Source: an uncultured bacterium (lineage in GTDB: Bacteria > Chlamydiota > Chlamydiia > Chlamydiales > SM23-39). From it: DNA of 54,379 nucleotides. The notes beneath the pieces were generated by a model. The model worked only from the letters and a program-made list of their open reading frames with translations, was not told the origin of the DNA and made no database searches. Location: positions 1-54,379 of the forward strand of contig CAZXLK010000002.1 in the NCBI GenBank assembly GCA_964641775.1, read 5' to 3'. This document shows, one piece after another, positions 17,914 through 20,552 of this stretch. How positions within the stretch are numbered: the stretch's first letter is position 1; every line of letters starts with the position of its first letter. The translations under genes were made by a program, and so were the position numbers.

Positions 17914-18480
17914 TTACCACAGGATATTTTTGCAGCGCAAGATTTGCAGATGCGCCGGCTGGATGAGTTTCGAAATGGAAGAATCTTGGGTATCGATGGT
18001 TTCCAGTTGAATGAACTTGTTCATTTCCATGCAAAAGGCAGGGACATTGTGGAAGACAAAAAGCCCCCCCAGCCCAAGTTTTTTCAAATGTTTTGTGTGA
18101 GATTGTAAAGGTCTAAAGTCTAATAGACTAGAGCAGTAGCTTAGATCGATTTGTTGAATGGGTAAACTCCGGATCCCTTGAATATTATTTAATGTATAGC
18201 ATCGAGTCAGAGTAAGATGGTTCAGTGTCTTTAATTTTTCGATACCGGATAGATCGATCAATCCATGACAATGATTGAGAGTAAGGTTGGTAACAGAGGG
18301 CAAAAGTGATAAATTACTTGGCAAATGTTGCAAATATACAGCTTTAGATAGATCCATTGTGTTGATTACTTCCGCTTCAGTTTTGGGGATAGAGGTGATC
18401 TCTTTTTCCAAATCCTCAATGCTTATGGCGGAGTCTTGCACCTTTAAAACACAGTTGTGGATGGAAACGGGCGGGTTCAT
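17914..18480 (-). CDS. Small leucine-rich-repeat protein
   Basis: The track start at 18516 lies inside the upstream gene. The ATG at 18480 overlaps the upstream TGA (ATGA). It has 22-24-aa LRRs with Cys: VTNLTLNHCHGLIDLSGIEKLKTLNHLTLTRCYTLNNIQGIRSLPIQQIDLSYCSSLLDF. Confidence 0.65.
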   Translation of the reverse strand: MNPPVSIHNCVLKVQDSAISIEDLEKEITSIPKTEAEVINTMDLSKAVYLQHLPSNLSLLPSVTNLTLNHCHGLIDLSGIEKLKTLNHLTLTRCYTLNNIQGIRSLPIQQIDLSYCSSLLDFRPLQSHTKHLKKLGLGGLFVFHNVPAFCMEMNKFIQLETIDTQDSSISKLIQPAHLQILRCKNILW

Positions 18481-20552
18481 AGAACAGCCACTGGGGAGCT
18501 GATTACATCTTGCCATAAAGAATAGAGCAAGAGATCGGAAGGTGTCTCTTCTGCAGGTGATGGAATAATCCCGGCTGTAACTGACAGATTGTATACTCCC
18601 ATAGTAAATTCTTCCACTTGGGCATTGAACTTGGAAATCGCATCAACTGTGTCCAAGCCATATTGTTTCAGTGTTATCTCCCGACTTTTTTCATGGCATC
18701 CTCGAACCTCCGGATTAGAATTTAATCCACATCTAGCTCTCAATATAGCATCAACGCCTGAGTGCGCCAAGATAGGTAATCCCTGAGTATCAAGATTTCT
18801 AGTAGGTCCGGCTAAAGTTCCTAAGATACTCACCATTTGAATGTAGAGATCTTCAGGTAAAATCGGCTCTTCCATCTGAAACCTTTTGATCGTTTCTTCA
18901 TTTTTTCTCATAGTTATGTCTACTATATTTTCGATTTCGCTTCGAGGGGTCGATGGATTGGCTTTGACAAGCGCATCGATGAGCAAGAATCTCGTGGTTA
19001 CCGCATTGAGGACCCGTTGTCTTTTCACTTGCTCCATGTCAGCTGCCATTTGATAAGCTCTAGTAATCTCTGTCATTAAGAGGGGATCTAACGGGAGATT
19101 GCCTTTGATCTTGCTGTCTTTTTGATATTTATATAAAATTGTCAATGCACTTCCCAATGCTCTTTCACTATATTTGGATTGGCCGAAGAGAGCTTTTTGC
19201 AGACCCACCAGGGTGCTATTTCCTTGAACTTCGTGTTGAAAGTGATTGCGGTACATAGCAAGGTTTTCAATCGAAGAGATCACTTCTTGAAGCTCGCTGC
19301 TCATAGTTCGCTGTTCTTCTCCTAGGTAAATGCCTGTTAACGCCAGTTCTTGCAATTGACTCTCTTCAGGAGTCTCTTCATAGATGGACCGAACCTCTTT
19401 TTGATATGTTTCAATAGATCTTTGATGTTTTTGTCCTCCTTTCACATCGCATATTTTTTTGAAGGTTCCTTGGGCATTATATCCTTCATCAAAAAATTGC
19501 GTCCTTAAAAGAGCTAAAGAGGCAATGCGGATGCTCAACTCTTCTTTTATTTGTATATAGTCTTTGCGACTACTGAGTCCGGGATCTCGCGCTACCATTT
19601 CATTTAATTCCTTCAATTTTGCATGGGCTTGATCCATCGCCTCCCCGAGTTTTAAAACTACTCTTGCCTTATAGGTCATTTTTGCAACATCCTCTGGACA
19701 AGATAGATTTTCAGCTACCAAATGACTTTCTTTTTGAATGGATCTCGCCAAGCATTTTGCTTGTACCAATGTTTGGGATAAAGTGGTTAGAAGCTCTATG
19801 GAGACACTATGCATGAACTTCTCTTCCAAGGACTTCCATTCTTTAGATTGCGGGTCATGCTGCCGAAACAATTGAAAAACAGCTCCGTTCAATTCAAGAT
19901 TGGAATAGAGGCTTTTCCCTAAATCTGTTTGCAAGTAAGATTCCGTGTTGCAAGAAGCCCCCGGATGATTCAAATAGCTTTCAGTATCTAGAAGCTCTCC
20001 TGATAATTTGTTAAATTTACCGAAAAAAATCGCATCAAACATGATTTTTTCTAAACTTTGCATCTTTTCAGGGGTGCCCTTAGATGCAACATAGACGATA
20101 TCTACATCAGAATTCCATCCCGGAGTCCCATAAGCCAGATAGCCGCCCGGCGGATCAATACCTACCCTTTTTAAAGCCCCCATGCAAAGATTCGTCACTT
20201 TGTCGATGATTTCTCCCCGCACCTGTTCTATAGAGCGGCCGGAGGCTCCAGGAGCCGCCATACTACTTCCCTTTTCTTCCTTTAATGTTTTCCATCCTAC
20301 GTCCTTAAGCAATTCAATGAGTGCATGTTCCTCAGATACCAATTGATTCAACTCTTTCATTTCATTAGGACAGTGAGTCGTTAAGAATTCGATCATTTGG
20401 GAGGACATTTTTGAGAATGTCGCATCAGGATTTTCAACTATCTGAACTAATTCATCTCTTATTTGTTCAGGAGAGACTCTATCATCGCCTTTTAAAGGAA
20501 TGGGTTTCTCAGGAAGTGGAGACGGACCTTCGATACCACCTATCGAATCCAT
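18477..20552 (-). CDS. Large hypothetical protein with a G-X11-D-X-D nucleotidyltransferase-type motif (candidate effector)
   Basis: 691 aa, ATG start. Residues 137-151 are G-YLAYGTPGWNS-D-V-D (nt about 20100-20144). The rest is predicted helical with no other motif I recognise. Confidence 0.7.
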   Translation of the reverse strand: MDSIGGIEGPSPLPEKPIPLKGDDRVSPEQIRDELVQIVENPDATFSKMSSQMIEFLTTHCPNEMKELNQLVSEEHALIELLKDVGWKTLKEEKGSSMAAPGASGRSIEQVRGEIIDKVTNLCMGALKRVGIDPPGGYLAYGTPGWNSDVDIVYVASKGTPEKMQSLEKIMFDAIFFGKFNKLSGELLDTESYLNHPGASCNTESYLQTDLGKSLYSNLELNGAVFQLFRQHDPQSKEWKSLEEKFMHSVSIELLTTLSQTLVQAKCLARSIQKESHLVAENLSCPEDVAKMTYKARVVLKLGEAMDQAHAKLKELNEMVARDPGLSSRKDYIQIKEELSIRIASLALLRTQFFDEGYNAQGTFKKICDVKGGQKHQRSIETYQKEVRSIYEETPEESQLQELALTGIYLGEEQRTMSSELQEVISSIENLAMYRNHFQHEVQGNSTLVGLQKALFGQSKYSERALGSALTILYKYQKDSKIKGNLPLDPLLMTEITRAYQMAADMEQVKRQRVLNAVTTRFLLIDALVKANPSTPRSEIENIVDITMRKNEETIKRFQMEEPILPEDLYIQMVSILGTLAGPTRNLDTQGLPILAHSGVDAILRARCGLNSNPEVRGCHEKSREITLKQYGLDTVDAISKFNAQVEEFTMGVYNLSVTAGIIPSPAEETPSDLLLYSLWQDVISSPVAVL

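Follow-up and report, generated by a model that had tools for sequence, protein, structure and literature searches.

A chlamydial protein family with a candidate GlnE/GlnD-type nucleotidyltransferase core and a dedicated leucine-rich repeat partner

The stretch of DNA analysed here (the window, 54,379 nucleotides) comprises positions 1 to 54,379 of contig CAZXLK010000002.1 in assembly GCA_964641775.1, from an uncultured member of the Chlamydiales (SM23-39). Its minus strand carries a gene for a 691-residue protein, with the position and extent given in a preliminary description made from the sequence alone, and directly downstream a small gene for a leucine-rich repeat (LRR) protein. Our analysis points to the 691-residue protein being a divergent nucleotidyltransferase of the GlnE/GlnD type that works with the LRR protein and is plausibly delivered to a protist host, a reading to which we assign a probability of roughly 0.55. 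Residues ~103-195 would form a very divergent core of the polymerase-beta type, with GlnE and GlnD as its closest known relatives. The coordinates of all features are collected in Table 1.

The preliminary description took the protein to be an orphan, which it is not. When 1.84 billion cluster representatives were searched exhaustively with phmmer, 122 relatives had E<=1e-3; of these, 87 passed a threshold of 1e-10 and 36 one of 1e-30. Most are 650 to 1000 residues long and 25 to 39% identical to the query, and the family is known so far mainly from environmental chlamydiae. A genome scan with a 12-sequence alignment located eight loci, every one of them from metagenome-assembled genomes (MAGs). 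Taken as given in the MAG records, their taxon labels are Chlamydiales (two), Parachlamydiales (one), Waddliaceae (two) and "Verrucomicrobia bacterium" (one, a record label only), and two have no taxon label. The genome scan found no relatives when the single 691-residue protein was the query, and a word-indexed homologue search returned only the query itself, even with a 91-sequence alignment of true relatives. The relatives missed by the word-indexed search are present in the same collection, and at identities of 40% or less its report of no homologues does not mean that a protein is an orphan.

The alignment of these 122 sequences shows which part of the motif that first drew attention to the protein matters. 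Residues 137-151 read GYLAYGTPGWNSDVD and are followed by IVYVA, exactly as first described, and G-X11-[DE]-X-[DE] is the metal-binding signature of GlnE-type polymerase-beta-fold nucleotidyltransferases. The bare G-x11-D-x-D string is nevertheless weak evidence, since 0.087 matches to it, and 0.78 matches to G-x11-[DE]-x-[DE], are expected in shuffles of the 691-residue protein; it is conservation that gives the region its meaning. D149 and D151 are each found in 114 of 116 sequences, next to S148 (113/116) and an Ile or Val at position 150 (110/116), whereas the column of G137 is occupied in just 60 of the 122 sequences and holds mostly K, E or S. Among the 108 motif-bearing members, an upstream glycine stands at x11 in nine and at x12 in 48. 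Instead, G142 is the glycine that the family retains (113/114), followed by T143 (105/114, with Ser in another seven) and G145 (102/114). These column and spacing counts make the D-x-D a genuine family signature and remove the G-x11 register from it: at the family level the G-X11-D-X-D that marks the GlnE/DrrA group gives way to G-x6-D-x-D. Of the 122 members, 108 carry the motif in its compact form, G-[TS]-x-[GAS]-x-x-[SHA]-[DE]-x-[DES], and the 14 others are fragments that do not include the region (ten) or close variants (four). The family consensus is A-x-G-T-x-G-x-x-S-D-[IV]-D and, about 38 residues further on, D-[TL]-E-x-Y, where D189 (112/113), E191 (104/113) and Y193 (110/114) are the conserved positions. 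R112 (111/112) and K169 (95/111) complete the conserved residues of this part of the chain.

A second cluster of near-invariant polar residues, at residues 353-511 (nt 19020-19496), is far from the D-x-D in the sequence and has no similarity to GlnE. It includes E356 (107/112), Q374 (109/113), E429 (109/111), H437 (100/108), K460 and Y461 (109/110 each), R464 (111/111), K510 (107/115) and R511 (111/114); N430 is also a near-invariant polar residue of this helical domain by column counts, and G609 (107/110) is conserved further along the chain. The invariant residues of the helical domain could bind nucleotide or substrate, or could make up a second active site. One relative of 1062 residues (P0086, locus L001) has an insertion of ~230 residues in the helical part.

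A structural model of the protein was built with AlphaFold2 on the 122-sequence family alignment and is confident, with a predicted local distance difference test score (pLDDT) of 93.2, a predicted template modelling score (pTM) of 0.92 and 601 residues at a pLDDT of 90 or higher; the single-sequence model (pLDDT 38) was unusable. The preliminary description of a long and helical protein was apt, as the model is nearly all helix, and outside residues ~103-195 the only other element is a small hairpin at residues 584-595. The polymerase-beta core runs, in order, through a helix, a strand, a G-[GS] turn, a second strand with carboxylates, another helix and a third strand that bears the third carboxylate. 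In the model, helix 108-129 (with R112) is followed by strand 137-140, by a loop that carries G142-T143-P-G-W-N-S, by strand 150-155, which D149-V-D151 opens, by helix 162-180 (with K169 and D173) and by strand 190-194, with D189-T-E191 at or within it. The alpha-beta-alpha-beta-alpha-beta order that had been foreseen for residues 120-220 is consequently present except for one short helix. The h-G-[GS] turn appears as a variant, G142 and T143 after strand 137-140, with Thr far commoner than Ser or Gly; the [DE]-h-[DE]-h pattern appears as D149, [IV]150 and D151 at the start of the second strand, and the h-[DE]-h of the third carboxylate as D189/E191 on the third strand.

Profile comparison links the family to GlnE and GlnD and to no other known proteins. 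We ran hhalign locally, without secondary-structure scoring, and compared the profile of the family core with 107 single sequences, that is, GlnD, full-length GlnE, the two GlnE domains and 103 others, the latter being unrelated Escherichia coli K-12 proteins from two genome regions and the window's own open reading frames (ORFs). GlnD ranked first (score 29.8, P 0.0016, GlnD residues 51-134), and the C-terminal domain of GlnE (27.3, P 0.0021, GlnE 696-760) and its N-terminal domain (24.4, P 0.0064, GlnE 166-181) also scored above the best of the 103 unrelated proteins (21.7). A further 129 decoys, 63 of them shuffled or reversed GlnD and GlnE, reached at most 20.7. The alignment places the family A-x-G142-T143-x-G145 on A-V-G93-G94-Y-G96 of GlnD, with the preceding helices aligned too, and after a gap of 5 residues in the family relative to GlnD it places S-D-I-D on S104-D105-V-D107. 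With GlnE, the family LSGELLDTESYLNHPGA falls on SSGILYEVDARLRPSGA.

For a comparison with a diverse GlnE profile, a word-indexed search on E. coli GlnE was useless, as it returned only sequences of 88% identity or more. We instead took 80 GlnE loci from metagenomes, whose identity to the E. coli enzyme ranges from 48 to 100%, and built from them a 78-sequence profile for each domain. Against these profiles the family scored 35-37, with P values of 6e-5 to 1.3e-4, probabilities of 53-65% and up to 56-104 collinear columns, and the maximum among 52 reversed or column-shuffled GlnE profiles was 19.4. The full-length family profile gave a 104-column collinear alignment with GlnE (P 7.7e-4) that spans the S-D-x-D strand, the "sG..L..[DE].[DE]...G" block and a conserved Trp, W239, on GlnE "AWTWEHQ". 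The catalytic D-x-E or D-x-D of kanamycin nucleotidyltransferase (KNTase) and AadA, both represented by provisional sequences, was in register in hhalign as well. In the C-terminal 350 residues no similarity to GlnE was seen (P ~0.5). A weak collinear match between the block FFDEGY...GQxHQR and GlnD 168-210 (P 0.18) was not significant and was not used.

Kinship to the Legionella effector DrrA, to which the preliminary description had likened the protein, was not borne out in the same way. S109-D110-x-D112 of DrrA aligns in register with S148-D149-x-D151, yet the scores of 16.9-23.2 (P 0.03-0.08) are in the range of the decoys. The DrrA sequence used is essentially identical to PDB entries 6yx5 and 3nku.

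A number of results weigh against a GlnE/GlnD-type core. No family match was obtained with Pfam, NCBIfam or PADLOC for the 691-residue protein, except for chance-level AAA, Pfam found nothing meaningful in 55 full-length relatives and the family consensus, and among 44 core segments the single NTP_transf_2 match (E 0.25) was at chance level. Searches of PDB sequences, by phmmer with the protein and by hmmsearch with the profiles, gave only AAA+ look-alikes, coiled-coil noise or nothing: up to E 10, no nucleotidyltransferase was among the matches of the full-length family profile, and the core-only profile had zero matches. In hhalign the family profile did not pick up the CCA-adding enzyme or poly(A) polymerase. 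The probability of 53-65% with the GlnE profiles is under the usual level of >90%, and the signal is partly motif driven, since its top-scoring part is the short S-D-x-D-hhh block. In canonical polymerase-beta-type families the first carboxylate follows the G of G-[GS] after 9-13 residues, which form a short helix. Here G142 and D149 are separated by x6 with no helix between, a 7-residue turn replaces the short helix between strands 1 and 2 in the model, and the stretch from the glycine to the D-x-D falls ~5 residues short of that in any canonical family. Finally, a Foldseek search with the model, a check that had been proposed at the outset and was run with the whole chain, had no nucleotidyltransferase in its top 50 against the PDB (best E 0.38, template modelling (TM) score ~0.1, none at E<=1e-3) and no relative in a viral library (best E 4.9e-3, TM 0.11). 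The Foldseek result is not decisive, because the core makes up ~90 of the 691 residues of a mostly helical chain.

The missing Foldseek, curated-family and PDB sequence matches, the glycine-to-aspartate spacing outside the canonical 9-13, the absent second core helix and the modest hhalign probabilities would all fit a protein that is not a nucleotidyltransferase, in which the motif would be a metal site that arose by convergence in a novel fold, for instance that of another phosphotransferase or a hydrolase, or would have a structural role in a helical scaffold protein. The true active site could then be the invariant helical cluster E429, H437, K460, Y461, R464, K510 and R511. We consider this distinctly unlikely. 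Three motif blocks are collinear with GlnE, each on the expected secondary-structure element, the GlnD and GlnE domains outrank 232 decoys, the genuine GlnE profiles have scores roughly double the highest among the 52 nulls, and five S-D-x-[DE] nucleotidyltransferases align with their catalytic residues in register. The catalytic core is probably derived from a nucleotidyltransferase. The narrower assignment to the GlnE type suggested in the preliminary description fares less clearly, with in-register profile links and controls that are far lower on one side and empty Pfam, PDB sequence and whole-chain Foldseek searches on the other, and we regard the sequence evidence for kinship to GlnE/GlnD-type nucleotidyltransferases as suggestive, that is, consistent and inconclusive.

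Other enzyme classes were examined and rejected. The string "YGTPGWNS" resembles the "YGPPGTGKT" of AAA+ proteins, and residues 107-150 had weak matches (E ~0.1) to VCP-like ATPases and Rpt3 in phmmer against the PDB and in NCBIfam, which would suit a degenerate AAA+/P-loop ATPase. However, these matches vanish with the family profile, there is no GK[ST], the column of the Walker lysine (147) holds K in 17 of 115 sequences, and a strand rather than a helix follows the motif, so that we give this possibility virtually no weight. A HEPN domain was rejected since no R-x4-6-H was seen by eye around R378, R464 and R511. An MCF1-SHE enzyme like SidL or LnaB was rejected too: the window protein has H437-x-x-x-E441, but E441 is not conserved. 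In GT-A glycosyltransferases and HAD-type proteins the DxD ends a hydrophobic strand, while here it begins one.

The strongest contextual feature, and one that is absent from the preliminary description, is the dedicated LRR partner. Its gene has weak Pfam LRR matches and two possible starts, an internal ATG that overlaps the stop codon of the enzyme gene in an ATGA and an alternative ATG at 18516 that gives a 40-nt overlap; either overlap implies co-transcription and probable translational coupling. We counted the pairing over 19 family gene copies, using jackhmmer seeded with the partner ORF of the window and later hidden Markov models (HMMs). In 15 of the 19 (the window, two copies in L001, L003, L004, L005, L007-L011 and L097-L100) the enzyme gene is followed at once, on its own strand, by a partner homologue, and an LRR gene of any kind is adjacent in 17. 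L012 holds the most distant of the relatives, and its next downstream gene encodes another kind of small LRR protein; in L013 the partner is divergently upstream and the contig ends after the enzyme gene. An intact divergent member (P0100, 715 residues, L014 5001-7148) has no adjacent LRR gene and is directly upstream of an F-type ATP synthase operon; as an exception to the pairing, it counts against the reading preferred here. The LRR module is not fused to the enzyme in any member, the partner HMM matching 0 of 122, and within the window it matches only ORF 17914-18516.

Two of these loci show further features of the gene pair. L001, a 532-kb metagenome contig, has two enzyme-partner pairs ~4 kb apart in convergent orientation (10001-14142 and 17211-21040), so the module can be duplicated within one genome; no paralogue of the enzyme was found within the window. 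In a Chlamydiales MAG (L006 4821-7277) the enzyme gene is split into three consecutive ORFs with no LRR partner downstream, and is either a pseudogene or an assembly error.

The protein had been described as heading an LRR/POZ-LRR locus. It is first by position, but it is coupled only to the adjacent LRR gene, and Pfam did not detect a POZ domain. Beyond the partner, at 14000-17879 on the minus strand, are three tandem paralogues of 409-429 residues that are 58-63% identical to each other, with weak C-terminal Pfam LRR matches and no BTB/POZ detected by Pfam. The G+C content is 0.416 for the enzyme gene, 0.410 for the partner gene and 0.425 for the whole window, compared to 0.35 for the three paralogues. 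The latter have the appearance of a recent expansion with a foreign base composition, and in this they resemble the LRR families of Parachlamydiaceae (PMC4209131). Given the conserved pairing and a shared G+C content that sets the two genes apart from the paralogue block, the functional unit is the enzyme with its LRR partner and not the whole LRR locus.

For a GlnE/GlnD-type enzyme with such a partner, a mechanism can be proposed, in which the catalysis, the nucleotide used, the acceptor and the role of the partner are all inferred. G142-T143 would be the phosphate-binding turn for a nucleoside triphosphate (NTP), and D149, D151 and D189/E191 would hold two Mg2+ ions. The NTP would be bound and its nucleoside monophosphate (NMP) moiety moved to an acceptor hydroxyl. 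R112, K169, Q374, E429, H437, K460, Y461, R464, K510 and R511 may bind the nucleotide and the acceptor, with the basic residues among them (R112, K169, K460, R464, K510 and R511) touching the triphosphate or the acceptor. With GlnE, GlnD and DrrA as models, a Tyr, Ser or Thr of a protein would be the most likely acceptor, and the LRR protein, acting as an adaptor or regulator, would recruit or gate it.

The acceptor could also be something other than a host protein, namely a small molecule, a nucleic acid or a nucleotide-derived product. The polymerase-beta superfamily has many small-molecule and RNA enzymes, KNTase and AadA are also in register with the family, and the many invariant polar residues of the large helical body could line a pocket for a small molecule. 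Predictions of effector acceptors are moreover unreliable, as illustrated by SidL, which was long thought to act on translation and adenylates 3-phosphoglycerate (PMC13431035). We still find an acceptor of this kind unlikely, as the best scores were those of the protein-modifying GlnD and GlnE and not of KNTase, AadA, Cca or PcnB, and as a dedicated LRR partner, a protein-protein interaction module, suits a protein target better. A CBASS-like (cyclic oligonucleotide-based antiphage signalling) system was rejected in the absence of a PADLOC match.

Secretion of the protein and AMPylation (transfer of adenosine monophosphate, AMP) of host proteins are predicted by analogy. The enzyme and its partner would be delivered as a pair into a protist host by the type III secretion system (T3SS). 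Delivery is plausible because the organism encodes a T3SS, because the neighbouring genes are effector-like, because LRR-containing gene families of Parachlamydiaceae behaved as type III secretion (T3S) substrates in a heterologous assay (PMC4209131) and because the N-terminus of the enzyme is disordered and variable. The T3S genes of the window span 124-8129 in a cluster at 124-9285 that contains the SctN ATPase (124-1440, above the curated cut-off), a YscO-like protein (SctO, 1540-2079), a 404-residue ORF (2098-3312), a SctQ-like protein with a FliN domain (3309-4379), a 1216-residue secretin that carries a long extension at its N-terminus (4479-8129) and, last, a TPR protein (8086-9285). 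A search for RNA evidence found occurrences of the window sequence only in soil-metagenome DNA runs; soil DNA and T3S genes together fit an environmental chlamydia with a T3SS. At the N-terminus of the enzyme the pLDDT is <50 for residues 1-13 and low to about residue 27 in the family-alignment model, and the N-termini of relatives vary in length and sequence to the point of not being alignable. Residues 1-27 could serve as a secretion signal.

Alternatively, the pair might stay in the bacterium, with the enzyme nucleotidylylating its own LRR partner or another bacterial protein. A tight, conserved pairing with overlapping frames is typical of enzyme-substrate or toxin-antitoxin pairs, GlnE and GlnD themselves modify bacterial proteins, and there is a precedent in MntA, a nucleotidyltransferase that adenylylates HepT, the product of the neighbouring gene (PMC7641770). 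However, a pair of ~700 and ~200-330 residues is unlike known toxin-antitoxin or defence pairs and has no PADLOC matches, nearly every named relative comes from an obligate intracellular chlamydia, and the LRR proteins of the phylum are generally discussed as host-interaction proteins (PMC4209131). The variable and disordered N-terminus of the enzyme and the lack of an obviously invariant Tyr in the partner alignment, as judged by eye, also argue against a non-secreted module, which we consider quite improbable. The fullest form of the preferred reading is a mostly chlamydial two-subunit effector, in which an NMP transferase with a remodelled, GlnE/GlnD-derived core, guided in recognition by a rapidly diversifying LRR subunit, is injected by the T3SS and nucleotidylylates host proteins; this complete picture is rather doubtful at present.

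GlnE and GlnD are NMP transferases that act on Tyr residues of proteins (PMC12409994). The family resembles them in the S-D-x-D-hhh strand, in the helix and strand that end in G-G or G-T and in the collinear "sG..L..[DE].[DE]...G" block. It differs in having no Pfam GlnE or GlnD_UR_UTase match, a glycine loop that is 5 residues shorter, no HD or ACT domains and a dedicated LRR partner, and in occurring in chlamydiae; compared with GlnE, "RLRP" is replaced by "Y..H" and there is one core instead of two. The Rab1 AMPylase DrrA/SidM, an effector of Legionella, contains an adenylyltransferase domain like that of GlnE together with the G-x11-D-x-D motif (PMC12409994). Its catalytic S-D-x-D and preceding helix align with the family in hhalign, but DrrA has guanine nucleotide exchange factor (GEF) and phosphatidylinositol 4-phosphate (PI4P)-binding domains and no LRR partner, and the x11 spacing is not a feature of the family. 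LnaB and SidL, MCF1-SHE effectors of Legionella, are analogous in function and transfer AMP from ATP to proteins (LnaB) or 3-phosphoglycerate (SidL) (PMC13431035). Their PAP2-like fold is unrelated and all-helical and has a Ser/His/Glu triad, whereas the family has no conserved H-x-x-x-E.

The combination of enzyme and partner has partial parallels. In IpaH/SspH effectors an LRR, which recognises the substrate and regulates the enzyme, is combined with an E3 ligase. The likeness lies in the use of an LRR module and a catalytic module, which are fused in IpaH/SspH and encoded by separate genes, probably coupled in translation, here. MntA-HepT likewise has a nucleotidyltransferase gene beside the gene of a functional partner, but MntA has ~130 residues and a HEPN RNase as partner, in contrast to the ~700-residue enzyme and LRR partner described here. 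The NEX family of Neochlamydia consists of effector-like, DUF294-containing F-box/TPR proteins with putative nucleotidyltransferase domains (PMC4209131), whereas our family has no DUF294 Pfam match, F-box or TPR and has a separate LRR partner.

Table 1. Positions in the window of the enzyme gene, its partner gene and the sequence features discussed.
Feature	Position	Strand	Basis or remark
Enzyme ORF	18477..20552	minus	ATG start, 691 residues/codons; ORF list
Shine-Dalgarno-like GAGGGAG (putative)	20560..20566	minus	8-14 nt upstream of the enzyme ATG; read in the upstream sequence
N-terminal residues 1-27	20472..20552	minus	Predicted disordered; rich in Pro, Ser and Gly
Nucleotidyltransferase-like core, residues ~103-195	19968..20246	minus	Model secondary structure, conservation, hhalign
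Literal string G137-x11-D149-x-D151	20100..20144	minus	Sequence read; G137 not conserved
Family motif G142-T-P-G-W-N-S-D149-V-D151	20100..20129	minus	Consensus G-[TS]-x-G-x-x-S-D-[IV]-D; proposed phosphate-binding turn and two metal-binding aspartates
D189-T-E191-S-Y193	19974..19988	minus	Proposed third catalytic carboxylate, third strand; aligned to GlnE "YEVDxRLRPxG"
Helical-domain block, residues 353-381	19410..19496	minus	FFDEGYxxQG...GGQxHQR (E356, Q374, R378)
Helical-domain polar residues	19020..19274	minus	E429, N430, H437, K460-Y461-x-x-R464, E507-x-x-K510-R511; column counts
ATGA overlap	18477..18480	minus	Internal partner ATG 18480-18478 over enzyme TGA 18479-18477
Partner LRR gene	17914..18516	minus	200 residues (188 from ATG 18480); weak Pfam LRR matches

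Two other neighbours of the gene pair deserve mention. Divergently from the enzyme gene, on the plus strand at 20699-21440, an ORF for a Gp49-like (HigB-type) toxin overlaps an ORF with a helix-turn-helix domain of the Cro/C1 type (G+C content 0.35-0.37), and the two are a probable toxin-antitoxin pair. A 266-residue ORF at 11303-12103 on the minus strand has a strong match to Peptidase_A4 (E 4e-30), a family of acid proteases mostly known from fungi that would be unusual in a bacterium.

In conclusion, an apparent orphan has become a family of at least 122 clusters with a candidate active site (G142, T143, D149, D151, D189 and E191), and this family is covered by no curated family, name or solved structure, its helical body having no structural neighbour in the PDB. 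Further handles on its function are a confident model, a plausible chemistry of GlnE/GlnD-type NMP transfer and an obligate-looking LRR partner that could indicate the target. Members that are called hypothetical in other genome annotations, and that Pfam, NCBIfam and word-indexed searches do not see, could be updated. We know of no described counterpart of the split enzyme-plus-LRR arrangement and of no characterised nucleotidyltransferase effector of host proteins in Chlamydiae, and no characterised chlamydial AMPylase surfaced in the literature search, which covered the sources in part. If our reading is true, the pair would exemplify an effector split into an enzyme and an LRR protein. It would also illustrate the extent to which the polymerase-beta core can change, its shortened glycine loop being invisible to family models. 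Environmental chlamydiae have hundreds of effector-like genes, few of them with a predictable chemistry. The system described here would then be, as far as we know, the first nucleotidylyltransferase effector system in Chlamydiae, and nucleotidylylation would join the host-manipulation repertoire of the phylum.

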